This document shows, one piece after another, positions 4,801 to 26,147 of a DNA stretch of 64,000 nucleotides. Within the stretch, counting starts at the first letter, position 1. The number at the start of each line of letters is the position of its first letter. The position numbers and the translations under genes were made by a program. The DNA is from a virus. The DNA lies in IMG/VR virus record IMGVR_UViG_3300027749_000070, positions 1-64,000 of that record, one strand, 5' to 3'. The notes below the pieces were generated by a model, which saw only the letters and a program-made list of their open reading frames with translations, searched no databases and was not told the DNA's origin.

Positions 4801-5907
4801 ATTACCGGTTACACTCAAAGTACCACCAGAGAAGGATAATCCATAACCAATTGAATTTGGATTAATAGATAATCCATCTGTGCTTAAAGTTAAACCAGAA
4901 TTATTTGCTAATAGAATAGAATAAATAAAATTACTTTGTGTTAATCCAGAGTTATTTGAAATCGCAAGAGATACGGTACCCGTAAACACCGGTGTTTGCC
5001 AAGATGCAACACCATTAGCATCAGATGTTAAATATTTACCATTTCCTTGTGACCCATCTACATATCTAAACGAAGGTTGTGTTCCAAAGACATGAAGCTT
5101 ATGTGTTGGACTTGCTGTTCCAATACCAACTAACCCAAATGGAATAATAACAGAGGAAGTTGCATTGGACGACCCAGTTGCATTAACTCTAACTACATTT
5201 AAAATATTTACAGTATTTCCACTTACGGAACTTTGCGTACCACTTAAATATATAACATTATTGTCGGGGTCAAGAATGCCAAAATTAGGAGCATATATAT
5301 CAAGAAATCTATTAACGCCGCCTCTTGCCGTAATTTCTATGTTAGGAAATGAGTTAGAATTAAGGTATATACTAGACGCATCAATAGCCCCATTTACGAA
5401 TAAAGCAGGAGTATTAAAACTATTAGAAGCGGTAAATAAACTTATAAATGTCCCACCATCATAAATATTAGAATTAGTTATAGAATTAACATCATTAAAC
5501 TTAGGAATATACCCAGCAGTACCATTTATACCCTGACTAGAATATGGAATCCATATAGGAATACCTGAACTATTTACTGATAATATGTAACTTGCCGTTG
5601 CTGGTCCAAGTTGGCTAAAAACAGATGATGTCAAATATCCAACTTTTAACACACCATTAGCGAAAGTTAAACCATAATTATCTATATTAACAGATAAATT
5701 ATAATTATACAAACCAGAAGCAGTACTTGCGGTTAAGCCATTTCCTATATTATAAGATAGCGATTGTATTCTTTCAATACCGTCACTATTCATAGAGTAC
5801 CAATTACCATCTGTTTTAGGGTAAATTATAGAAGTATTACTACTTGGTGTTGCAACAATAGAAACTTGCTGCCATTCTTGTATATTATATATTTTATTAA
5901 CGCTCAT
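1900..5907 (-). CDS. Long tail fibre / adhesin-like virion protein
   Basis: 1335 aa, G/S/T/N-rich; GxGLT repeats, NIAIG/NxxIG trimeric beta-roll repeats, VGIGTxSP fibre motifs, C-terminal HNLNT motif. Confidence 0.75.
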   Translation of the reverse strand: MSVNKIYNIQEWQQVSIVATPSSNTSIIYPKTDGNWYSMNSDGIERIQSLSYNIGNGLTASTASGLYNYNLSVNIDNYGLTFANGVLKVGYLTSSVFSQLGPATASYILSVNSSGIPIWIPYSSQGINGTAGYIPKFNDVNSITNSNIYDGGTFISLFTASNSFNTPALFVNGAIDASSIYLNSNSFPNIEITARGGVNRFLDIYAPNFGILDPDNNVIYLSGTQSSVSGNTVNILNVVRVNATGSSNATSSVIIPFGLVGIGTASPTHKLHVFGTQPSFRYVDGSQGNGKYLTSDANGVASWQTPVFTGTVSLAISNNSGLTQSNFIYSILLANNSGLTLSTDGLSINPNSIGYGLSFSGGTLSVTGNFGINTGSGLTYSGNTYSVNLGINSGLTFSGTSVIIQIGSGLTLSNGSLASTGLVSNGVTNSFPYFNTSTSLTSSVIYQVSNNVLIGTSSNVGSKLYVAGSFSFTNDGIINSINIGRGLGNNILFGNRALSQATPGNYNIAIGDNALVSNQSTDNIAIGFSASNSISGAKQNIGIGNYVLSNSNSPNNVAIGYRAAFGVSDAGVYIGTYAGYAGGYNVVIGYNSGGNSSGSGNIIIGYNSGVNSSGSNNILLGYAAGVNFLGSYSVIIGGFDTTGAYASLNNSLNTLFISDGFGNLRIYSPSTGNILMGTTSETGSKLVVSGSASFYGNLKIVDSTQAAGRYLVSDSNGNTSWYMPVGLGMTISGYTFSVNLQTNSGLTVSMSGLAVNPNIAGYGLTYSGGSMSFTTNINASQGYIPYYNTVTSLTSSVIYQTSSNILVATTSNDGSRLQIAGSVSIYGKLKIIDGTQAANRLLVSDQYGIASWTSSTLLGSSFFAQGGNSFGATATLGTTDNRNMQVIAGGNNIILFATSSMTLNVPIVYSNANSGYSSLNNNGLIITNTTNGANGIGLNAASGGNPNLDFYINSVVKAGIGYTNIAPIGAKGLGITNLVASPYDAQLVLDEVGSLQWRDGSNGGSSIFRWSIDKNGAITQSVAQLLGSLSTSAYSITQTWNTSGTPTAIKMNITDTNSATASLFLDLQKSGVSQFNVDKNGNTIIGTASSDGSKLVVSGSASFYGNLKIVDSAQAAGRYLVSDSNGNTSWYMPVGLGMTISGYTFSVNLQANSGLSVSMSGLAINPNIAGYGLTYSGGSMSFTTNINASQGYIPYYNTTTSLTSSVIYQTSSNILIGTISNNGARLQIAGSVSIISATGNAFQLKDTTQGAGYILNSDVNGFGSWKPYKYSGTQSFTANLSQVIAHNLNTNFYIIQLFDYTTGEEILGAYTTRGLTQATITLSSNVSSCGIVIMG
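2210..3863. repeat. ~425-bp intragenic direct repeat (approx. 2210-2635 and 3438-3863)
   Basis: Copies offset by 1227 nt, both encoding GSKLVVSGSASFYGNLKIVDS...RLQIAGSVSI. Confidence 0.9.
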
Positions 5908-5911
5908 TTTA

Positions 5912-6643
5912 TTATCCTATTATATTTATTCTACCATTTGTTATATCACCATCAGTAGTTAGTATAACTGAATTAACATCATTTATTTGAATATTGGCTG
6001 TTATAAAGTTATTACTTACTCTTACTGAGTAAACTATATCTGTTGTGTTTAAACTATGTGTTATAGTCATCGGAATATTAGATGAGCTAGAAAAACTTGC
6101 TGAGTATTTAACATTTGCAGGTGTAGTATTAAAGTTTGGATCTGGTCCAGCTAAATCAGTAATTCTACTAAAATCTGTTAAATAAGTAAGTGTGCCGCTA
6201 CCAGAATAAGTTCCGGAACCAGTGAAAGTCAAGGTACCATTTATTATTATAACTCTACCCGCATTATCTAATGAACCACTTGCACCAATTGTTAATCCAC
6301 CATATACTAAATATTGATAATTAGTTGGTATACTAACTGTACCGTTAGTTATTAAATATTGAGTTCTAGTTACATTACCAGCTGATGGATTTGTTATAAA
6401 ATCTGTCCAATCAGATGATGAACCAACCCAAGGTCCAGGTAGTAGTTTATAATAACTACCATTTACACCAACAACCATACCAGTTCTTCTTCTATCATTT
6501 GGTATAGCGTCACGTTCGGTAGTGGAACTCACATTTCTTAAACCATCAATACCAAATAAAGGGTCAATAACAGGATATGTATCCTGCGTATCTGTTGGAG
6601 CTAGAAATCCCGTAACTGGTATTGATCCTGTATATCCTGCCAT
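5912..6643 (-). CDS. Virion structural / fibre-associated protein
   Basis: ERDAIPNDRRRTGMVV motif seen in phage structural proteins; C-terminal ITHSLNT motif shared with the fibre. Confidence 0.55.
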   Translation of the reverse strand: MAGYTGSIPVTGFLAPTDTQDTYPVIDPLFGIDGLRNVSSTTERDAIPNDRRRTGMVVGVNGSYYKLLPGPWVGSSSDWTDFITNPSAGNVTRTQYLITNGTVSIPTNYQYLVYGGLTIGASGSLDNAGRVIIINGTLTFTGSGTYSGSGTLTYLTDFSRITDLAGPDPNFNTTPANVKYSASFSSSSNIPMTITHSLNTTDIVYSVRVSNNFITANIQINDVNSVILTTDGDITNGRINIIG

Positions 6644-15668: not shown

Positions 15669-16070
15669 ATGAAATACTTATTAGATTTTGAGATTTTTGA
15701 AAAGAAAAATTATTTTAAGGGCAGTGAGTTTGCAGATGATGAGGGAAGGTCTTGGAGTGTTGAAAAAGTATACCGTTTTGTTAAAAAACATAAAAAGAAA
15801 TACTATCACCCAAGATACGACTTAGATAATATAAAAGATAATCTAAAATGGTGGCGTAGTATTTATTCAATTAAAAATAAAAAACATAGAAACAGAATGC
15901 TGGATGCAGATACTAAATATCCTATTTTAGTTATAAAAGACGGTGAAGAATTAAATGTATGTGACGGTCTAAATCGTTTATATAAAGCAATTAAAATTGA
16001 AAAAAGAAAAACTTTACCAGTTTATTTATTTAATAAAGAGGATATTATGCATCTTAAAAACAAAGATTAA
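15669..16070 (+). CDS. ParB/Srx-like domain protein with MKYL leader
   Basis: ADTKYPILV.......DGLNRLYKA. Confidence 0.6.
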   Translation: MKYLLDFEIFEKKNYFKGSEFADDEGRSWSVEKVYRFVKKHKKKYYHPRYDLDNIKDNLKWWRSIYSIKNKKHRNRMLDADTKYPILVIKDGEELNVCDGLNRLYKAIKIEKRKTLPVYLFNKEDIMHLKNKD

Positions 16071-16095
16071 TTTAAATATATAAAAATAAAAAATT

Positions 16096-16611
16096 ATGTC
16101 ATTTAGTTTATACGATAAAGAAGAATTAGAAGCAATTGCCAAAAAAGAAGAATCCAATAATAGAATGGAAGAATTCTTTAATAGTAAAAGAGAAATATGG
16201 AATAAAGAAATCGAACCATTAAATGAAATATCAAGATTAAGATATAACCAAGAAAATGCTTCTCAAATAGTTGAGCTACAAGCTTCCGCTTTGGCATTTA
16301 GACAAAGAATTAATGAAGAAGTATCTTTTTATCTACAGAAGCTTTCCAAAGAAAAAATTAAATTAAAAAGAGCCGTTCAAGAAAAAATGGTTTGGTATGC
16401 TGCTGGTAAATCACCACTTAATTTAAATGGCAAATTAAGTAATTCTCAAATGACGAGCATAATTGATGCTCATACATCGGAAACAGAAAGAGGTGTTGAG
16501 TTAATTGAAATACATATTGATTTTTTAAGAACATCGGCTAAAAATCTTGCCGATATAGGTTATCAAGTAAAAAACACAATTGAGCTTTATAATCTATTGT
16601 CTAAAAATTAA
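16096..16611 (+). CDS. uvsY: UvsY-like recombination mediator
   Basis: Helical; WYAAGK, IDFLR..AKNL..IGYQVKNTIE matches the UvsY C-terminus. Confidence 0.6.
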   Translation: MSFSLYDKEELEAIAKKEESNNRMEEFFNSKREIWNKEIEPLNEISRLRYNQENASQIVELQASALAFRQRINEEVSFYLQKLSKEKIKLKRAVQEKMVWYAAGKSPLNLNGKLSNSQMTSIIDAHTSETERGVELIEIHIDFLRTSAKNLADIGYQVKNTIELYNLLSKN

Positions 16612-16613
16612 TA

Positions 16614-16639
16614 AAACAATTTTCTACTTATAAGTATAA
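16614..16639 (+). promoter_or_regulatory. Putative middle promoter AAAC-N17/18-TATAA (representative copy)
   Basis: Same arrangement at 85-110, 20744-20770 and 37620-37645; variants before primase (29795) and ClpP (36044). Confidence 0.5.
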
Positions 16640-16644
16640 AGTTT

Positions 16645-17433
16645 ATGAGTAAAAAATTATCTATCAACTTAAATAAGCGTTTCTTTCCAGATTTTATCGC
16701 TAAAATACAAGACTTATCCAGTATCAATGACGTTGTAAAACTGAAAATAGAAACTGATAAAGTTTTAATGTATGCCATGAAGGCAAATGATAATGCTGTT
16801 TTAGCATTAAAGAGTTATATACTTCCTACTACAAATTATTTCGATAATTTTAACCAAGAAGATATGTTTGATTTCATTATTGTTAATGCACCAAAGTTTA
16901 TCAAGTCATTAAAATTTTTTGACATTGATACACAAATTAAAATGGATGTAATTTATAAACCACACCATGAAAATGAAGGTGTAATGCAGATACGTTCAGC
17001 ACAATTTACTAATGGTAAATTAAAAATATCTACAATTGGTGGTGAAGATGATAAAATTAGAGATTTGAACGCTGAACTTCTTGAAACTAGAACTGATATA
17101 GAAAATGCTAGTTTTGATTTTCAAATTACTAAACATGATTTTAACGATGTTAAAAAATTATGTGCTATTGATTCGGAAGAAAAAATCTTATCTATTGATA
17201 TAGAAGAAGGAAAAATTGTAGCAAGCGAAATATCTAAATGGGAACTTCAACTAGGAGAAATTGATTCTTCATTTAACCAAAAAATTATTTTCAATAAAAA
17301 GTATTTATCAAATATAAATGGCGACATGGATATGATTAACTTTTATATGTTTGATACATTTATCTTAGTAAAGGATAATATATCTTCACTGATGCTTTCG
17401 TTTGAACAAACTTTTGATGAAGATGATGAATAA
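16645..17433 (+). CDS. Sliding clamp (gp45/PCNA-like)
   Basis: 262 aa, two-domain alpha/beta clamp pattern (FQITKHDFNDVKKL, IIFNKKYL), adjacent to UvsY. Confidence 0.6.
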   Translation: MSKKLSINLNKRFFPDFIAKIQDLSSINDVVKLKIETDKVLMYAMKANDNAVLALKSYILPTTNYFDNFNQEDMFDFIIVNAPKFIKSLKFFDIDTQIKMDVIYKPHHENEGVMQIRSAQFTNGKLKISTIGGEDDKIRDLNAELLETRTDIENASFDFQITKHDFNDVKKLCAIDSEEKILSIDIEEGKIVASEISKWELQLGEIDSSFNQKIIFNKKYLSNINGDMDMINFYMFDTFILVKDNISSLMLSFEQTFDEDDE

Positions 17434-17713
17434 GAACATTGATACCGAAGAAGAGTTGATGAAAATTTTGGTAGAAGAATTATCAAAAGAAGTTGATAAA
17501 CAGGTCATTAATGATGTAATGGCTTCTATGAAAATTATTGATGAATTTAATTTAAAACTTAAAGAAATTAAAGCTTTTAATAGAGAAATACAAATTGATA
17601 ATATATTATACGGTACTAATAATGCACTTCTAGAAATAGAAAAGACAGAAGAATATAATAAATTATCAGATGAACTTAAACAAGAATATATTAAAAATGG
17701 TAGATTATTATGA
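17423..17713 (+). CDS. Major-capsid (gp23) central-helix fragment plus NRExQID module
   Basis: IDTEEELMKILVEELSKEVDKQVI ~ T4 gp23 MDADAELSGILATEIMLEINREVV. Confidence 0.55.
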   Translation: MMNKNIDTEEELMKILVEELSKEVDKQVINDVMASMKIIDEFNLKLKEIKAFNREIQIDNILYGTNNALLEIEKTEEYNKLSDELKQEYIKNGRLL

Positions 17714-18021
17714 CACAAAGCTTAATAGGACATAAAAGTCCAGATATTCAAACAGGTATTGTATTTGCGCCATATATTCATATGGAATCAACCGCAATAA
17801 TAGAATCATCCTTGCTTAAAAAAGCTGAAATAAAGGTTAAAGCAATTAACCGTGAAAGACAAATAGACTCGATTTTAGAAGATAAAGATTTTATACCAAT
17901 GGATATAAAAGAAACTGCCGAATATAAAGAGTTTGAAAATACATATATGAAACCTTTAACAGGTATAAAAAGTAGATATGCAATAGCATCAATTGGAAAT
18001 GAGTATAAAAAAACAAACTAA
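17710..18021 (+). CDS. Major-capsid (gp23) C-terminal fragment with inserted NRExQID module
   Basis: GHKSPDIQTGIVFAPY...KPLTGIKSRYAI ~ gp23 GYKGPNEMDAGIYYAPY...QPVMGFKTRYGI. Confidence 0.7.
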   Translation: MTQSLIGHKSPDIQTGIVFAPYIHMESTAIIESSLLKKAEIKVKAINRERQIDSILEDKDFIPMDIKETAEYKEFENTYMKPLTGIKSRYAIASIGNEYKKTN

Positions 18022-18475
18022 AGAAGAACTAATAGATAAATGGGAACCAGTTTTAGATAAAATGGGATTATCTGGTGATAAAAAAGATTGGATGGCTCAA
18101 TATGCAGAGGCGCAATCAACAGCAGACGCTAATAATAGCAGCTCGTTATGGAACCAACAAATTGCACAATTAGGTGGAACCGCAAGTGATCCTTTTTCAG
18201 CAGCAATTTTTCCAGTAGTTAGAAGAGTTGCAGCAACAACCATATCAAATGGTGATGTTGAACTTTTGAAAAAGGCTGAAAATATGGTGATAGCTGTCAA
18301 TCGTGAAAAACAAATTGATTCTATATTAGAAGATAAAGATCCTACACTTATATCAATAGAAGATACCGAAGAATATAAAGAATATCTAAATAGCGGTTTA
18401 GTTTCAGTCAAACCTATGTCTGCTCCATCTGGATTGTTATATTTTCTGGACTATAAATATGATGATAAAAAATAA
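17999..18475 (+). CDS. Major-capsid (gp23) N-terminal fragment with inserted NRExQID module
   Basis: TKEELIDKWEPVL ~ gp23 TKAELLNKWKPLL; VVRRVAATTI...VSVKPMSAPSG ~ MVRRAIPNLI...GVQPMNSPTG. Confidence 0.75.
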   Translation: MSIKKQTKEELIDKWEPVLDKMGLSGDKKDWMAQYAEAQSTADANNSSSLWNQQIAQLGGTASDPFSAAIFPVVRRVAATTISNGDVELLKKAENMVIAVNREKQIDSILEDKDPTLISIEDTEEYKEYLNSGLVSVKPMSAPSGLLYFLDYKYDDKK

Positions 18476-18572
18476 TAATAAAAAATGATAATAACTACTA
18501 CATATATAATAACATCGTTTGGAACAATGATTAATGGAACACAAATTATAATTAGTGATTTTACAATTAATT

Positions 18573-19081
18573 TTAGATAACTTTTTTAAATACTAACTTA
18601 CAAGTTAGTTGATGAGACAGAGCCCTAATGAATTCATTAGAGGCTTTTGTTTTATGTATAACTGGAGCTTTTTTAATTATATTATAATCTTGCGTTTCAG
18701 TCACATAAATTAAACCAGCATAAGAAGGCACTTCATCTATACTAATAAGATTTTCAGGAACTACAAAGTAAAAATAATTTGGAACTAAATAAAAAGTTTT
18801 TTTTTAGTTTCTTTAATAAATTTACCTTCTGTTATTAAGTTATGTTTTGGTTTTTTAAAATCAGCCTTAAAATCACTTCTACTTATTTTAACCTCATATT
18901 CATATATGAAATCCGATTTACTTATAGATATAACATCGCATTCTTGTAATCCATATATAGAAGCGTGTGTTGATATAGGAGAGTGTCCTTTTTGATATAA
19001 ATTCATTACTAAACCAGCTTCTATATCTTTGGAAGCTGAATTGGATCTTTTAATTTTATTGATTGAGGATTTTCTTGACAT
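18573..19081 (-). CDS. MmcB-like PD-(D/E)XK nuclease, split by a -1 frameshift at an A9 run
   Basis: ECDVISI...EYEVKISRSDFKAD in frame 0; PNYFYFVVPENLISIDEVPSYAGLIYV continues in the -1 frame after the run at 18797-18805. Confidence 0.7.
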
Positions 19082-19109
19082 TAGTATTTTAGATTTTTAT
19101 ATATAATAT

Positions 19110-19580
19110 ATGAATTATATATCAAACTTTAATGGTTATATTAAAGAACATAAATACTCTCATTTAAAAAAAGAGTCTCCATTACTTATGGGTAAAATAG
19201 AATCTAATGATACACTTCCAATAAAAGGCTCTTGTGTTATAATTTTAAGTAGTCCTTATCCTGATAAATTAAAAAGAGTTTTTATGGGAATAATTGATAA
19301 AGTTGTGGATGAAAGAAAGGTAATTTTTATATCACAATACTTTATTGTTAAAGAATATATAAATGGTAAAATATGGTATGAAAAAGTTAATTTAGATATA
19401 AAAAAATATCTAAATATGTATTCCAATTCATTGGTATTAAAACAAAATAAAACTCCTTTATGGGAAGAATCATCACAATTAAATAAAGAACAATTTTTTA
19501 ATCAATACCAAAATAAGTTAAAAGAACTACTATATAGAGACGATATATACATATTTAAATCAAATAGTCTACCAAAATAA
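19110..19580 (+). CDS. Hypothetical protein with leader MNYISNFNGYIKE
   Basis: ORF preceded by TATATA. Confidence 0.55.
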   Translation: MNYISNFNGYIKEHKYSHLKKESPLLMGKIESNDTLPIKGSCVIILSSPYPDKLKRVFMGIIDKVVDERKVIFISQYFIVKEYINGKIWYEKVNLDIKKYLNMYSNSLVLKQNKTPLWEESSQLNKEQFFNQYQNKLKELLYRDDIYIFKSNSLPK

Positions 19581-19587
19581 ACAATTA

Positions 19588-20685
19588 TTATTTTAATATA
19601 AAATGTTCTTCAATTAATGAGTTTTTGGAAGAATTTATACTACGCTTTGTTATGCACAAATTAGAAATATCAGCAATTTCTTCAGCAGGTATATTATTGG
19701 AAAAGCCATAAAAAGTAGATATTTTATGATCTATTGTTGGATATAACTTACTTGTAGAAGTGTTAGACAAATAACCTTTTATGAACTCATTATCATAGTA
19801 GTCATATCCTTCCCATTTTTCATATAATTCTTTTTTAAATTTATTTGTAAAATTTCTTACTTTCTTTTTGTAAATTTCCCAATCAGTCAATAGCTCATCT
19901 TTAATTACAAATCCATTTATCTTTTTAGTTTCCAAAATCTTATAATATATTTCTTTTACTTGTGAAACATTTTCAACACCATATTTTTCTATACAAGTAT
20001 TTTTAATTTTTTCACGAATTTTTAATATATTATTTTTGTAATTATTTTTATGCTCTTCTGTTTTAAAAATCCAGTCAACTCCATATTTTTCTATGAATGT
20101 GTTCCTAATTTTGCTAACAATTACATCTTTATTTTCGCTAATTCCTTTTTTAAATTTGTCAGTTTTTGAATAAGAATCAACACCATATATCTCAATTAGT
20201 GTTTTTTTAGATTTTTCTTTAAATTCATTAGAAGACATCCATTTCTTATTTTGTTCTTTTGATTCTTGCGTCTTAAACCAAGAATCAACTCCATATTTCT
20301 CTAACATTGTTTTCTTTCCTTTTTTTGAGCCCTTTTTAATGCCTTTCCATTTTAAAGATTCAGTTTCTTTAAACTCGTTTGTTTGTGAGTATGATTTAAC
20401 TCCATATTTTTCTATACATGTTTTTTCACGCTCTATATTTTTACATTTAAAGCAAGAATAATATCCTTTATTATTTCTTTCAGTGTTAACATGGTATTTA
20501 TTTATTGACATTTCTGTTTCAGAAGAGCATATTTCGCATATTGCTGTAATTCTGTTATTTGAACCTTTTGGTATATTTAATGGATTTACAGATATTTCTT
20601 TTTCTTTTATCAGATAACCCAATTTTTCATAATATGATTTATTTCTTTGATTTATTTTAACATTAATTTCCTTTTCTTTTATCAT
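19588..20685 (-). CDS. Free-standing HNH-type homing endonuclease with EKYGV repeats
   Basis: Zn finger, several (E/I)(K/I)YGV repeats, C-terminal TIDHKIS...NLCITKRSINSSK. Confidence 0.7.
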   Translation of the reverse strand: MIKEKEINVKINQRNKSYYEKLGYLIKEKEISVNPLNIPKGSNNRITAICEICSSETEMSINKYHVNTERNNKGYYSCFKCKNIEREKTCIEKYGVKSYSQTNEFKETESLKWKGIKKGSKKGKKTMLEKYGVDSWFKTQESKEQNKKWMSSNEFKEKSKKTLIEIYGVDSYSKTDKFKKGISENKDVIVSKIRNTFIEKYGVDWIFKTEEHKNNYKNNILKIREKIKNTCIEKYGVENVSQVKEIYYKILETKKINGFVIKDELLTDWEIYKKKVRNFTNKFKKELYEKWEGYDYYDNEFIKGYLSNTSTSKLYPTIDHKISTFYGFSNNIPAEEIADISNLCITKRSINSSKNSLIEEHFILK

Positions 20686-20775
20686 ATACCTTATATGATA
20701 AAAATAACTATAAGTTCTGTTTAGAACTAATTTGAAAAAGTTAAAACTTTTTCACTTAATTTTCATATAAAACTT

Positions 20776-20883
20776 ATGAATAAAAATGAAAAACTCGAAA
20801 AATTAGAGTTATTAAAAAACAAAGCGAGCGAGCTGAAAAAGGACGTGGATTATTATAATGCACTCCAGCTCGCTCTTTTTTAG
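20776..20883 (+). CDS. Family B DNA polymerase gp43B, first segment (35 aa, ends at motif B QLAL)
   Basis: MNKNEKLEKLELLKNKASELKKDVDYYNALQLALF*; not in the ORF track; preceded by a middle-type promoter. Confidence 0.75.
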   Translation: MNKNEKLEKLELLKNKASELKKDVDYYNALQLALF

Positions 20884-20917
20884 CCCCCACCCACTTGTGG
20901 TTGGGGGCATAGGACTA
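20878..20917 (+). other. 40-nt coding-gap element (stop plus GC hairpin) inside polymerase motif B
   Basis: CTT|TTT TAG CCCCCACCCACTTGTGGTTGGGGGCATAGGA CTA|AAA; removal restores QLALKLVLNGSYG. Confidence 0.75.
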
Positions 20918-21517
20918 AAATTAGTATTAAACGGCAGCTATGGCGCATTTGCAGCAGCATATTTTGTATTGTTCAATAACCACGTTGCTTCCAGTATTAC
21001 TGCACAAGGTAGAGATTTAACTAAAACAATGAATCGTGTTAATGAAGATTATTGGTATAATCAATGGCATTTAGATACATTATTACATAATGACGTTTGT
21101 ATAAGAAATGTTAAACAAATTATAGAAACTAATCATGTTAGCATCTATGCGGATACTGATAGCTGTTTCTCGGAAACACTTGTGAACACAAACAATGGAG
21201 AAAAAACAATTGAAAATTGGTATAATGAAAACATCAAAAATGGATCAGCAGGTGAAACAATTAAAGGTCACGAATCGGTTTTAACAAATGATAAAATATT
21301 AAATTGGTCTGAAAGTAATAAAATTTATTATACTCCGGTTAAAAGAATTATTAGACATAAAGTATCTAAGCCGAAATGGAAATTGAAAACTAAATCTGGC
21401 AAAGAAATTATAGTTACTAACGACCATTCTATGATAGTGTTTAGAGACGGTATTAAATTGGAAATTAAACCATCAGAAATATTAAAAACTGATAAAATTT
21501 TGGTAATTAAAAATTAA
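20918..21517 (+). CDS. Family B DNA polymerase motif B-C segment fused to split-intein N-half
   Basis: KLVLNGSYG, ITAQGR, YADTD, then intein SCFSETLV...VTNDHS. Confidence 0.9.
   Translation, partial: KLVLNGSYGAFAAAYFVLFNNHVASSITAQGRDLTKTMNRVNEDYWYNQWHLDTLLHNDVCIRNVKQIIETNHVSIYADTDSCFSETLVNTNNGEKTIENWYNENIKNGSAGETIKGHESVLTNDKILNWSESNKIYYTPVKRIIRHKVSKPKWKLKTKSGKEIIVTNDHSMIVFRDGIKLEIKPSEILKTDKILVIKN
21161..21514 (+). mobile_element. Split intein N-fragment (118 aa) at the Pol-c site
   Basis: Block A S-C-F-S-E-T-L-V follows YADTD; block B IIVTNDHS; ORF stops with no intein C-terminus. Confidence 0.9.
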
Positions 21518-21545
21518 TATATACAGATAAATATATCAGCATAGA

Positions 21546-22655
21546 ATGGAACTAAATAAAAAATTTATAGAATGGTTTAATAAAAATAAAAACGCAGAAG
21601 AATATAATAAAATATTCAATTTGTATTTTAATAATCTATCCAAATGTAGAATTTGTAATAATCCAATATATTATTATGATTCTACATTTAGAATAGATAA
21701 ATCAGGAATTTTGCAATTACATAAAAAATCATGTTTAACATCTAAAAATGTAAATAAAGAATATACATTATCCATATGTGAAGAATGTTTGATTAAAAAA
21801 TATCCAGAATATAATAACAAAAATAAGCCAAAGGTTTTTAATCAAATGAATTATTTAACTGAATATGCTTTTAATATACCAAATGACATTTCTTTAATTT
21901 GGATGAAAGAAAAATATGCTATTACAGAAGAAAATCTAACAAAAAAACATGGCAAAAAAATTGGCAAAGAAAAATGGATAAATTATTGTAATAAACAATC
22001 CAAAACTAATACATTTGAATATAAGAAAGAAAAATATGGTTGGGATAAAGAAAAATTTGACGACTATAACCGTTCAAGATCGGTAACATTAGAAAATTTG
22101 ATAAAAAGGAATGGTACTGAAGAAGGTTTAAATATTTGGAAAAATTATTGTGATAGGCAAAAATATACGACAAGTCTAAACTATTTTATAGAAAAAAATG
22201 GATTGGAAAAAGGCACTGAAATATATGAAAATTTTTGTAAAAAAAGATTATTTGGAGCAGGATATTCAGAGGTATCTAAAAAATTATTTGATGAACTGAA
22301 AAAACGTTTTGTTAATAATAATTATACAGTATATTACGCTGAAAATGAGTGGTATTTTTGTGAAAAAGATAAAGGATATTATTTATTGGATTTCTTTATT
22401 AAAGAATTGAATATTGGAATAGAATTTAACGGAGATATATGGCACGCAAATCCACTTAAATACAAGCCACATGATAAGCCTATTTTATTTCAAAAAGATA
22501 TTACTGCCGAATTTATTTGGCAAAAAGATAAAATAAAAAATGATTTTCTGAAAACAAAATTAGATAAATTACTAATAATTTGGGAATCAGATTTTTACAA
22601 AGACGGAATTGATAGAACAATAGATAAAATATTAAAAGAAATAAATGATAAATAA
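21546..22655 (+). CDS. Free-standing Vsr/DUF559-like homing endonuclease between the intein halves
   Basis: K(Y/H/N)G.E.G repeats; LDFFIKELNIGIEFNGDIWHANP...D..K...IIWESD; own late promoter at 21515. Confidence 0.8.
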   Translation: MELNKKFIEWFNKNKNAEEYNKIFNLYFNNLSKCRICNNPIYYYDSTFRIDKSGILQLHKKSCLTSKNVNKEYTLSICEECLIKKYPEYNNKNKPKVFNQMNYLTEYAFNIPNDISLIWMKEKYAITEENLTKKHGKKIGKEKWINYCNKQSKTNTFEYKKEKYGWDKEKFDDYNRSRSVTLENLIKRNGTEEGLNIWKNYCDRQKYTTSLNYFIEKNGLEKGTEIYENFCKKRLFGAGYSEVSKKLFDELKKRFVNNNYTVYYAENEWYFCEKDKGYYLLDFFIKELNIGIEFNGDIWHANPLKYKPHDKPILFQKDITAEFIWQKDKIKNDFLKTKLDKLLIIWESDFYKDGIDRTIDKILKEINDK

Positions 22656-22800
22656 AGTAGAACATGAAAAAATAGAATATTTTTTTGATGAAATAGAATC
22701 GTGTGAAGTGATTGGTAATTTTGAAGACGAATATGTTTATGATGTTGAGGTGGATGATGAAACACATACATTTATTGGAAATGATATATTAGTACATAAT
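22645..22800 (+). mobile_element. Split intein C-fragment (52 aa)
   Basis: VYDVEV...HTFIGNDILVHN followed by +1 Ser (SLFV). Confidence 0.92.
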
Positions 22801-23988
22801 TCGCTTTTTGTATCATTTAAACCAGCTATGGATCATTGTGATTGGAGAAATTTATTTTTTGATAATTTAGATAAACTAACAAAAAAGTTTTTCATAATAA
22901 CAGGTAATTCACAAGTTAATACAGACAATCCTAATTATCATGGCTCTTGGAGTTTTGATCCAAATGATGACCCTGAAACAATTGGTCATATTAAAGACAT
23001 AATCGAAACTGATTGCGATTATATAATTGTTGATGGTTTTTGGATTAAAAATCGTGATTTCGAAAAATTCATATCCGAAAATAATTATCAATCAAAACTT
23101 AAATGGAATTGGTCAAATGAACTTGACTTCATACAAGGTTTAGATTATTACCGATATGCTGGTTATTTCAAGAAATGTCTTGAAGAATATGCAGATAGCT
23201 ATGGTGTGACTAATAAGGAAGATTTTGAATTAGAAAGAATTAGTGAATCAGTTATTTATTTAGCTAAGAAAAAGTATATTCAACACATCGTACATGAAGA
23301 TGGTATTGATTATGATAGATTAACTTATTTATATCCAAAAGGAGTTGAACTTGTTAGATCTTCTACGCCATTATTTGCGAGAGATAAAATTGTGGATATT
23401 ATTAAATACTTATTTACTAATCCAGATACATTTACTATTAGAGAATTACTTAAATTGGTTAAGAACCTTAGAAAAGAATTTGACTTATGTGTCCCAGATA
23501 AGATAGATGATATCTGTATGCAATCGTCATGTTCAAACTATGAGGAAAAAGTTCTTAATGATAAAGAAAAATTAGAGTTTATTAATGGTGCACACTTTGC
23601 GGTTAAAGCATCAGCTTATTATAACCACTTATTACACAAGCATAAAGATATACAAGCTAAATATGACTTCATCAAATCAGGAACTAAAATTAAGTATTAC
23701 TATTGTAAAGACACTACTATTGGTAAAGTATTTGCTTATATGCGTGGTTCTTATCCAATTGAAATAGCACCCGAAATAGATCTAAATGAACAATTTGCAA
23801 AATGTATCTTATCACCGATTAACTCGATTATTGAGCCATTGGGTCTTCCAGAAATTACAAAAAGACTTTCGGTCGTGTTAGATATATTTGGTGGATCTTT
23901 ACAAAAGAAGAAAAAAGAAGAACAAGAAGAGGATGATTATAGTGATGAAGAATACAACAATAGAAAATGGGATAATTGGGATTATTAA
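22645..23988 (+). CDS. Intein C-half fused to family B polymerase palm/thumb
   Basis: SLFV after HN; FELE, AKKKY, KGVELVRSSTP, KSGTKIKY. Confidence 0.9.
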   Translation: MINKVEHEKIEYFFDEIESCEVIGNFEDEYVYDVEVDDETHTFIGNDILVHNSLFVSFKPAMDHCDWRNLFFDNLDKLTKKFFIITGNSQVNTDNPNYHGSWSFDPNDDPETIGHIKDIIETDCDYIIVDGFWIKNRDFEKFISENNYQSKLKWNWSNELDFIQGLDYYRYAGYFKKCLEEYADSYGVTNKEDFELERISESVIYLAKKKYIQHIVHEDGIDYDRLTYLYPKGVELVRSSTPLFARDKIVDIIKYLFTNPDTFTIRELLKLVKNLRKEFDLCVPDKIDDICMQSSCSNYEEKVLNDKEKLEFINGAHFAVKASAYYNHLLHKHKDIQAKYDFIKSGTKIKYYYCKDTTIGKVFAYMRGSYPIEIAPEIDLNEQFAKCILSPINSIIEPLGLPEITKRLSVVLDIFGGSLQKKKKEEQEEDDYSDEEYNNRKWDNWDY

Positions 23989-23999
23989 AAATAAATAAA

Positions 24000-24395
24000 A
24001 TGAATATGAAAATAATTAATAAAATTAAATCTTTATTTAAGAAAGAAAACTCCGAATTAAATGTTTCGGCACCTGTGTATGTAATACCAGAACCAATCGG
24101 TGAAATACACTATTTTGATTTCAAATATGAAGAACCAACAATGGAAACTAAAATTATGGCACAAAAAATAGGTTTAGATTTAGTAAACGTAAAACGTGAT
24201 CCAAATATGGTTATTACATCAGGATATATGGATTTTAAAGAAAATGTAGAATTAAGTCCAGAAGAGATCTTATTTCAAATGAAAAAGGTAAAAAGAGCTT
24301 CAGAAAAAGTTTTGGAAAAAATGACTGAAACTGAGGCTAAACATCATAAAAGTTTAGAGTATTTTAAACATAAAGCAGAGCAACATGATAAGTAA
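24000..24395 (+). CDS. Protein with permuted gp23-like 'QxIGLDLVxV / G.xxYxDFKY' segment
   Basis: PIGEIHYFDFKY, KIMAQKIGLDLVNVK, GYMDFK; parallels 17999..18475. Confidence 0.5.
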   Translation: MNMKIINKIKSLFKKENSELNVSAPVYVIPEPIGEIHYFDFKYEEPTMETKIMAQKIGLDLVNVKRDPNMVITSGYMDFKENVELSPEEILFQMKKVKRASEKVLEKMTETEAKHHKSLEYFKHKAEQHDK

Positions 24396-24879
24396 AAATA
24401 TAGCTTATTACATAGACGCATATAAAGGTATTTTTACATTTGCAACAACTGCAATTGGTGAGAAGTATTATACTTATCTAATAGATGAAGTAGTTAAAAA
24501 TTTAACTTGTAAAAGTGTTAAATTAGATTTTGATTCAGATAATGATGACGCAGCTAATTATAAAGATACTTTATTAATCTTAGATTTAACTACAGCAAAA
24601 CCTGATAAATTTTATGTAGATCGCATCGCTAGAATTTGTGATGAAAATAATAATGTTCTTCTTATAAAGAAACTTACTTATAAAGGAATAAGTAGTTTAG
24701 GAACAGATACTGTAATAACACCAAGTTTTCTTTTGTATTCAGCAACAGTTGCTTTTACGATTGATGATAATAGTGTAATAAAAGTAATTAAAAATAGGTA
24801 TGACTCGATTGATATAATCAATCATAATATAATAGCTTATATGAGGGAAGAAAGAATAAACCAGATACTTGAAGATTAG
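24385..24879 (+). CDS. Hypothetical protein, possibly a degenerate RecA/DnaB-fold fragment, with REERINQILED tail
   Basis: LLILD strand and KVIKNRY; no Walker A; C-terminal motif resembles the NRExQIDxILED module. Confidence 0.4.
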   Translation: MISKNIAYYIDAYKGIFTFATTAIGEKYYTYLIDEVVKNLTCKSVKLDFDSDNDDAANYKDTLLILDLTTAKPDKFYVDRIARICDENNNVLLIKKLTYKGISSLGTDTVITPSFLLYSATVAFTIDDNSVIKVIKNRYDSIDIINHNIIAYMREERINQILED

Positions 24880-24893
24880 TATCTGGCTTATTT

Positions 24894-26147
24894 TTATTTT
24901 TCAATCCATCTAACTGGAACTCTTTTCTTATCATCAAAATCTATTCTTGTGATTTCTGCTTCATTATAAAGTGTCTCAGATATACCTAATCTAGGTATAA
25001 AAACTTTATCACCACTCATCAATTTTATTGTTGTTGGTTTACCAGCTTTTGGACCTCTAAGTAACATTACACTTATTTCTCTAAATACTTGATTTTTTAT
25101 TTTTGGCGGGAAAACACTTATTATTTCAACTGGTGTATATCCAGCATAAGCACCTTCTTTTAAAGGCACTAAATCTGAATTTTGATTGCCTTTAACAGGT
25201 AAATAATAAAATTTCTTTAATTTTGCTTCTGTTGGTGCTAAATTAAAAAATTTACCACTAGAAGCTCTTTTAGATTCATAATCAGAACCAACTGATTTTC
25301 TTGTTAACTCGCTAGTTATATTCTTTTTACCAATTGTTCTTAATACAAAATTAATTGGATCTTCTTTACCATTTTGTTTATAAATTATAAAGAAATTCTT
25401 TTCACCAGTTTCTCTTATTATTGCATGTTGAGTATCATATACTAACGGACTTATTGGCCTTGGTTCTTTTCTTAAAGGTAATCCTTCTGCTTTTTTTTGC
25501 TCACATTCCATTAACCAACGATTATATACAGAAGAATTTAATTGTGCCAAAGAAGCTCTTTTAATTTCTGCATCAGATACGTCATCAGGTAATATAACAA
25601 TAGTTTTAGCTGACATTACTAATTCTTTTTCCTTTTTAGTTGTCATTTCTTCGCTATCTTTAACATCAACATATTTTGAATCTAGCATAGTTCCTATCCA
25701 AAATGAATCACCAATTTTATTTAAAGAAGGGTATTCAAATACCGGTGCATAAAGTTTACCATTAAATTCCATCGCTAATTTTGCTAAATAAATAGTTGCA
25801 AATGCCTTATTACCTGGGAAATTATAATCTTCTATCCAAGATAGATTGCCAATTTCTCCTAATGCAGCTGTAATTACTTTTTTCATTAAATCATAATCAG
25901 CATTATATTCTACCGTAAATCTTTTAATCGGAATTTCCCTTACTTCCATACCAGAGTTAGTCCTAGCCGGATTACCATGTTCATCCACTGGTTTCATAGC
26001 AATAAGTCTCCATCCACTTTTATTACCAGATTCATACTCCATGAATCTGGATATTGGTGAGTTGCTTGTTCCGCTAAATGGAGTTGCTATATTATTATTG
26101 AAACTTAAAGACCTAAATAATTCATTAATACTTTTTAAATATTTCAT
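24894..26147 (-). CDS. Hypothetical protein with MKYLKSINE leader
   Basis: Start reassigned to ATG 26147, after the late promoter. Confidence 0.65.
   Translation of the reverse strand: MKYLKSINELFRSLSFNNNIATPFSGTSNSPISRFMEYESGNKSGWRLIAMKPVDEHGNPARTNSGMEVREIPIKRFTVEYNADYDLMKKVITAALGEIGNLSWIEDYNFPGNKAFATIYLAKLAMEFNGKLYAPVFEYPSLNKIGDSFWIGTMLDSKYVDVKDSEEMTTKKEKELVMSAKTIVILPDDVSDAEIKRASLAQLNSSVYNRWLMECEQKKAEGLPLRKEPRPISPLVYDTQHAIIRETGEKNFFIIYKQNGKEDPINFVLRTIGKKNITSELTRKSVGSDYESKRASSGKFFNLAPTEAKLKKFYYLPVKGNQNSDLVPLKEGAYAGYTPVEIISVFPPKIKNQVFREISVMLLRGPKAGKPTTIKLMSGDKVFIPRLGISETLYNEAEITRIDFDDKKRVPVRWIEK

Follow-up and report, generated by a model that had tools for sequence, protein, structure and literature searches.

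A probable fractured polB gene with a split intein and a Vsr-like homing endonuclease at motif C in a viral contig

Introduction

Genes in which the halves of a split intein flank a free-standing Vsr-like endonuclease, as in gp41-1, were described as fractured genes by Dassa et al. in 2009 (PMC2677866). A case in the DNA polymerase gene polB is listed in the GenBank record of Aeromonas phage Aes123 (JN377899), which gives gp43A, gp43B1 with a putative N-intein, a putative VSR endonuclease, and gp43B2 with a putative C-intein. The Aes123 PolB1 intein trans-splices, has Asp at position -1 and Ser at positions 1 and +1, and consists of oppositely charged halves; its structure has been solved (PDB 9HTH), and it has been engineered into CL and CLm. 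Trans-splicing was also shown for LCGC14 PolB2, GOM-OPS-1 PolB2 and CP21 PolB1, three inteins biochemically characterised by the Mootz laboratory (PMC12707363), whose N-terminal halves (IntN) are 115-120 amino acids (aa) long and C-terminal halves (IntC) 39-46 aa. In the Tenacibaculum jumbo phage PTm1, ORF-239/240/241 are annotated as 'intein-containing split DNA polymerase precursor', 'VSR endonuclease' and 'DNA polymerase'. Here we analyze a polB locus of this kind in the IMG/VR virus record IMGVR_UViG_3300027749_000070. Our window, the whole stretch of DNA analyzed, is the first 64 kb of this 91-kb viral contig (28% GC; CheckV completeness 36%). As judged from its sequence, the locus very probably encodes a functional, naturally split PolB intein together with a Vsr-like homing endonuclease.

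The polB gene is broken at motif C

The locus consists of three open reading frames (ORFs; 20858-21517, 21546-22655 and 22645-23988) that lie on the plus strand in three different frames. The first runs from PolB motif B (KLVLNGSYG) through motif C (YADTD) into the intein N-half. Its N-extein (20915-21160), covering the fingers and palm from motif B to motif C (Pfam DNA_pol_B, E 9e-10), ends with Asp -1 (GAT, 21158-21160), and is followed by Ser1 (AGC, 21161-21163), the first residue of a 118-aa IntN (21161-21514) that is closed by a TAA stop at 21515-21517 and includes TNDH, the conserved His of RHKV and a basic second (N2) lobe. The second ORF encodes the free-standing homing endonuclease, of 369 aa (21546-22655; phrog_22677, E 1e-47), and its stop is overlapped by the ATG of the third ORF at 22645 (ATGATAAATAA). 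That ORF begins with IntC (22645-22800), 52 aa long including its Met, which contains blocks F and G (..THTFIGNDILVHN). The terminal HN of IntC is at 22795-22800, Ser+1 (TCG) is at 22801-22803, and LFVSF and the remainder of the PolB palm and thumb follow to make up the C-extein (22801-23988; phrog_1918 and phrog_262 DNA polymerase, E ~1e-33). All the parts named in the initial annotation of this DNA are present where it placed them. The exteins are similar to the uninterrupted gene for the C-terminal PolB subunit (polB-C) of the uncultured phage LR745206, with 65.5% identity over residues 32-118 of the N-extein and 62.6% in the C-extein. We regard it as well supported, with some room for doubt, that the locus is a fractured polB in which a mobile cassette of mini-intein and homing endonuclease occupies motif C (DTD/S) of this subunit.

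The two intein halves match complementary parts of the Pfam Intein_splicing profile, IntN covering positions 26-94 (34.7 bits) and IntC positions 116-155 (19.8 bits). Ser1 stands directly after YADTD; block B has TNDH in the context ..IIVTNDHSMIVF.., which is invariant across the intein family; and blocks F and G end in the terminal His-Asn, followed by the +1 Ser (..VYDVEVDDETHTFIGNDILVHN/S). Ser1, the block B His, the terminal HN and Ser+1 are all kept in the approximately 30 distinct family members displayed. The second lobe of IntN (residues 51-118) has a net charge of +10 and an isoelectric point (pI) of 10.1, and IntC has a net charge of -14 and a pI of 4.05. The halves reside on separate ORFs that are broken at the endonuclease-insertion loop, IntN ending at the stop at 21515-21517 and IntC having its own ATG at 22645. 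The naturally split Ser1/Ser+1 intein at DTD/S and the charge complementarity of its halves, both proposed in the initial annotation, are borne out by these features.

In sequence searches of the PDB, IntN matched 9HTH (E 1.6e-9), and IntC matched 8CPO (E 1.4e-6) and 9HTH (E 2e-4), its matches including the PolB16 intein. The fold was tested on a contiguous relative of the intein, L021, which is 74% identical to the window's IntN and 73% identical to its IntC; the halves align with it end to end, and the break in the window falls in its short linker. The predicted structure of L021 (a model of this relative, not of the window's halves) has the HINT horseshoe fold, with a predicted local distance difference test score (pLDDT) of 91.3. 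Its best PDB match is 9HTH (template modelling score TM 0.86, E 3e-13), and it has approximately 70 PDB matches at E<=0.001, of which those listed are inteins or related HINT domains.

The same break in other phages

By scanning IMG/VR with the PolB-IntN fragment we found 65 loci. Approximately 30 distinct sequences among them have the same intein at DTD/S, and in approximately 25 of these, from independent samples, IntN stops a few residues past ..KTDKIL.. and IntC has its own Met. The isolated phage PTm1 has the same stop position and the same broken layout. Approximately 27 loci are intein-less and read without interruption, for example YGDTDSIFVSF in LR745206, which is matched by the predicted spliced sequence of the window, YADTD-SLFVSF, as the initial annotation had expected. 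The intein-less alleles thus define where the intein was inserted and which product splicing is predicted to yield.

The initial annotation itself had named sequencing errors, in the stop and in the frame changes, as the explanation that would undo it. According to this explanation the locus is one contiguous intein-endonuclease that was broken artificially by sequencing or assembly, and the general error rate of metagenome assemblies speaks for it, but nothing more. The three ORFs are in three frames, each with its own start, and the stop and layout are repeated in approximately 25 relatives, in PTm1 and in Aes123, with the endonuclease family free-standing in all of them. Since the stop recurs in so many distinct relatives and in PTm1 it is not a sequencing artefact, and we consider this explanation extremely unlikely.

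Contiguous, split and endonuclease-free forms of one intein family

The intein is 62-88% identical across loci, although the exteins at these loci are only 30-73% identical to those of the window. Similarly, DNA identity between the window and PTm1 (76.6%) is confined to the intein parts. A quick maximum-likelihood tree built from the C-extein groups the window with two intein-less alleles as its sisters (support 99); in its clade, five cassette-bearing rows are interspersed among 24 intein-less ones. This patchy distribution, together with an intein identity that exceeds the extein identity, points to frequent horizontal spread of the intein.

The single intein family comprises five contiguous mini-inteins, four split inteins without a nuclease, and many split inteins with one. 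In the same tree, contiguous and split forms pair with supports of 100 (L025/L023), 100 (L026/L031) and 83 (L021/L020), and the contiguous L066 groups with three endonuclease-free split forms (support 100). Of the five contiguous mini-inteins, four thus have split forms as partners or neighbors; the fifth, L037, falls in a clade that is not resolved and also includes split forms. The full series of states in the gene-fracturing model of Dassa et al. is therefore found within one intein family. The occurrence of contiguous, split and nuclease-free split states in this family, scattered among intein-less alleles, is what is new here. Near-identical contiguous and split pairs at one site could indicate which changes adapt an intein to working in two pieces and, if repeated recent switches between the states have taken place, they would be naturally matched pairs in which the splitting of inteins can be studied.

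The free-standing endonuclease

The protein encoded between the halves has an N-terminal zinc-finger-like module, helical repeats, and a C-terminal Vsr-like nuclease at approximately residues 240-369. Pfam searches gave zero matches for the protein, whether alone or across 14 homologues, and so did phmmer and profile searches of the PDB. Foldseek gave weak matches to Vsr, and a clear answer came only from a full VIA-align search. We used an AlphaFold (AF2) model built on the 14 homologues (pLDDT 87), in which approximately residues 240-369 matched E. coli Vsr (1cw0_A; Z 11.1, root-mean-square deviation 3.4, 122 residues aligned), the DUF559-type protein NGO0050 (Z 9.9) and the homing endonuclease I-Bth0305I (3r3p_B; Z 9.6). 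Residues D282, E293, W299-H300, D328 and E347 show little or no variation among the homologues, and by sequence they fit the Vsr-like motifs described by Dassa et al. These matches agree with the initial annotation, which had called this protein a free-standing Vsr-like endonuclease.

The endonuclease was also said to have a late promoter of its own. The motif TAATATATA (21515-21523, plus strand) overlaps the IntN stop and lies 22 nt before the endonuclease ATG. There are 24 copies of TAATATATA in the window compared to 10.8 expected (for example at 120, 12997, 15656, 21515, 30990 and 36733), and 20 of these are followed, 4-24 nt after their end, by a same-strand ORF that starts with ATG. The motif is likely a promoter or gene-start signal of the phage. 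From this enrichment and placement before ORF starts, the endonuclease probably has its own expression signal, which may or may not be a late one. In DNA as AT-rich as this, a scan for sigma-70 promoters and terminators was not informative.

Some relatives have other genes in the gap between the intein halves, for example for treble-clef zinc-finger proteins. One relative, L031 (IMG/VR contig 3300037067_004891), has a TnpB gene (IS605 OrfB, with a Cas12f-like TNB domain; 4859-6049, minus strand) between the halves, adjoining fragments of a Vsr-like endonuclease, so that a transposon-type nuclease is situated inside a fractured intein.

Proposed assembly of the polymerase

We propose that the locus is expressed as two polypeptides, PolB(motif B..YADTD)-IntN and IntC-(SLFVSF..thumb). 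The second is probably co-expressed with the endonuclease, because the start of its ORF overlaps the endonuclease stop. Electrostatic attraction between the acidic IntC and the basic second lobe of IntN would bring the two halves together, and these would then form a HINT domain. Standard class-1 trans-splicing by Ser1, TNDH, the terminal HN and Ser+1 would follow and yield a contiguous PolB-C with the sequence YADTDSLFVSF. From the homologues Aes123, LCGC14, CP21 and GOM-OPS-1 we infer that the halves in the window undergo protein trans-splicing. PolB-C would work with a gp43A-like exonuclease/motif A subunit encoded by a separate gene that the contig lacks. The endonuclease most likely cuts the intein-less polB of co-infecting relatives, whose repair would copy the whole cassette in; the patchy distribution of the cassette on the extein tree is indirect evidence for such homing.

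It is also conceivable that the halves associate without splicing, as a non-covalent dimerisation module that holds two PolB fragments together. Assembly without splicing has been described for a fractured phage ribonucleotide reductase, NrdA (PMC3045599), and strong charge complementarity alone would favour tight binding. However, Ser1, TxxH, HN and Ser+1 are conserved throughout the family, also in its contiguous members, whose enzymes can work only after splicing, and the break is directly after the catalytic DTD, where a bulge of approximately 170 aa is unlikely to be tolerated. For these reasons we think non-covalent assembly improbable, and trans-splicing remains our preferred explanation.

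A stop-hairpin insertion upstream in polB-C

The polB-C gene has a second interruption, near motif B. It begins with a leader ORF of 35 codons (20776-20883, plus strand), which ends in ..YYNALQLALF at a TAG codon. Relative to uninterrupted alleles there is a 40-nt insertion here (20878-20917, plus strand) consisting of TTT TAG, a C5..G5 hairpin and CATAGGA CTA, at a point where relatives read YYNALQLALKLVLNGSYG unbroken. We analyzed comparable insertions in 21 loci (19 distinct hairpins), which occupy at least three nearby positions in the region coding for motif B. Most of the 21 elements have a stop codon just 5' of the hairpin, and they are 36-48 nt long with no constant frame. The hairpins are a covarying family: beyond the C5/G5 clamp, 90.5% of stem positions are paired versus 50.5% with shuffled arms, and none of 2000 shuffles reached the observed value. 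Pairing was counted by a dedicated script, because MAFFT lost the register of the 3' arms. Purifying selection acts on the 31-codon leader of element-bearing relatives, for which the median ratio of nonsynonymous to synonymous substitution rates (dN/dS) is 0.13. An exact search for the window's hairpin in IMG/VR gave 0 matches, and we found no other GC-rich hairpin of the same type in the contig.

Directly upstream of polB-C is a second free-standing endonuclease-like gene (19588-20685, minus strand; Pfam DUF7487, E 1.4e-18; phrog_3339 homing endonuclease). Within the close clade, a DUF7487 gene is directly upstream in 14 of 18 element-bearing alleles and in 0 of 9 uninterrupted ones, and where a divergent DUF7487 lineage (31-39% identity) occurs, the insertion is at another site, after LNGSY. 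A stop-hairpin with an upstream DUF7487 endonuclease parallels the bypass element of T4 gene 60 with mobA; the known homologues of the gene 60 element are all in topoisomerase genes. The 40-nt insertion is a candidate ribosomal (translational) bypass element of the gene 60 type, and RNA-level excision may be an alternative.

Other ways of reading through the insertion were considered and rejected. Reassignment of a stop codon is ruled out, with TAA, TAG and TGA all occurring and most insertions changing the frame. A single frameshift is ruled out as a general rescue for 14 of the 21 elements; in the window's own element a +1 shift at CUU UUU UAG is possible, and would add 13 residues. An Rfam E-value scan of positions 16000-25000 for a group I intron or another known RNA around the breaks gave zero matches.

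If the candidate bypass is real, the cassette at motif C would be repaired in the protein by trans-splicing, and the cassette at motif B (the DUF7487 endonuclease with the stop-hairpin at 20878-20917) would be hopped over by ribosomes on the mRNA, in the manner of T4 gene 60/mobA. One essential gene would then house two selfish endonuclease cassettes that are neutralised at different levels, protein and mRNA, and the intein family, for its part, would show repeated recent switches between contiguous, split-with-endonuclease and split-without-endonuclease states. We put forward this combined interpretation tentatively, as a possibility that falls somewhat short of an even chance. If bypass is true, the hairpins would be a second natural family of hop elements, and this would matter more than the intein itself.

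Could polB-C instead be a decaying pseudogene, wrecked by several mobile elements in a phage that uses another polymerase? The locus is interrupted three separate times within 4 kb (by the upstream endonuclease, the 40-nt insertion and the intein cassette), and the incomplete contig leaves room for a second polymerase. All the ORFs are intact, however, with the catalytic motifs kept and the leader and exteins conserved (the former with the low dN/dS given above), and the interrupted polB-C is the sole copy in relatives that are 98% and 86% complete. We therefore judge decay to be very unlikely, and favor a functional polymerase assembled by trans-splicing.

Three points weigh against a working split intein at this locus. 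The efficiency of its natural split relatives varies widely, with Aes123 splicing only ~30% in vitro. The contig is approximately 36% of a genome and is without the PolB exonuclease subunit. Lastly, the same polB-C carries the stop-containing 40-nt insertion upstream, so that full-length PolB-C would depend on a second, putative decoding event.

Genome context

The closest relatives of the contig at the DNA level are the uncultured huge phages LR745206, LR756502 and LR756500, and parts of the polB locus also match PTm1 and the Prevotella Lak megaphages. The source phage is large and probably a jumbo phage. Searches of the 91-kb contig for the PolB exonuclease subunit (by tblastn with PTm1 ORF-236, and with Pfam PF03104) found none. 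The relatives L072-L075 encode the PolB exonuclease/motif A subunit in a gene of its own, approximately 500 codons long and 85-170 kb away from polB-C, so that their PolB is split in the gp43A/gp43B manner without adjacency. We found no tRNA genes in the window. Upstream of the polB locus, at 17402-18475, are three small overlapping ORFs with a common repeated module (..AINRE.QIDSILEDKD..), the last of which has a weak match to the N-terminus of the major head protein family phrog_138 (E 3e-5).

Comparison with known systems

Sequence comparison shows homology to the Aes123 cassette along the entire length of the window's cassette. The middle part of PolB plus IntN matches Aes123 gp43B1 with 28% identity (E 3e-21) and with the DTDS junction in register; BLASTP aligns IYADTDSCFSET.. 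to CYIDTDSVVGDT.. of gp43B1, which places the insertion between DTD and S with Asp at -1. The endonuclease is 30% identical (E 6e-36) to the 'putative VSR endonuclease' of Aes123. The window and Aes123, which represents T4-like Aeromonas phages, have in common the host gene, the DTD/S site, Ser1 and Ser+1, a break at the endonuclease-insertion loop, an IntN of approximately 120 aa, a basic IntN and an acidic IntC, a homologous Vsr-like endonuclease between the halves, and a PolB that is additionally split into gp43A and gp43B. They differ in that the inteins are only ~28-32% identical, IntC is 52 aa long in the window and 39 aa in Aes123, and Cys residues without a catalytic role are present in the window's IntC and at position 2 of its IntN. 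In addition, the window's phage is a large, probably jumbo, AT-rich one related to Bacteroidota phages, and its gp43A-like gene is not adjacent.

The initial annotation considered this a new split intein at the Pol-c site, and mentioned no cases of the fractured layout other than gp41, NrdJ and IMPDH. Neither point holds, because the same PolB cassette, with a Vsr-type endonuclease, was already annotated in Aes123 (JN377899) and PTm1 and had been exploited biochemically, and 9HTH, CLm/CL, LCGC14 PolB2, GOM-OPS-1 PolB2, CP21 PolB1 and MIJ3 have already been published for this site. The charge polarity opposite to that of DnaE, which it also pointed out, is not new: Dassa et al. reported it in 2009 for gp41-1 and gp41-8 (PMC2677866). 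By itself, then, the intein has incremental value as one more natural Ser1/Ser+1 PolB split intein. LCGC14 is orthogonal to the engineered Aes123-derived tools at ~30% identity; the window's intein is about as distant from those tools (~30% identical), and may also be orthogonal to them.

PTm1 has the same three-gene layout and an intein of the same subfamily (69% identity over IntN residues 35-118 and 70% in IntC). Its exteins are only 31-33% identical to those of the window, so the cassette is common to distant polymerases, and its endonuclease is annotated as 261 aa long (31% identical). The Prevotella Lak megaphages contain a homologous PolB-IntN fragment (for example MK250020, 519464-520803, unannotated; ~33% identity over 87% of the query), adjoined by a stretch that is 68% identical to the window's endonuclease at the DNA level, and on this sequence similarity they too appear to carry the fractured polB.

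LCGC14, GOM-OPS-1 and CP21, from phages and marine-sediment metagenomes, are likewise naturally split Ser1/Ser+1 PolB inteins at DTD/S (PMC12707363). Their sequences differ from the window's, as far as a comparison by motifs in the noisy text of the supplement allows; one construct there, of unresolved label, has ..RHKVSKP.W.. and TNDHSM motifs in common with the window. In MIJ3/PA5oct, too, a jumbo-phage PolB is split at this motif. The Ser1 intein there has blocks A, B, F and G (..NILVHNS), but the endonuclease between its halves is of HNH type and not Vsr-like. The fractured genes of Dassa et al. (PMC2677866) resemble the window in having a downstream start that overlaps the end of the endonuclease and a promoter-like element that precedes it, and in gp41-1 and gp41-8 IntN is likewise positively and IntC negatively charged. 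They differ in their host genes (gp41, NrdA, NrdJ, IMPDH, DnaE and others) and in the Cys1 chemistry of their well-known members.

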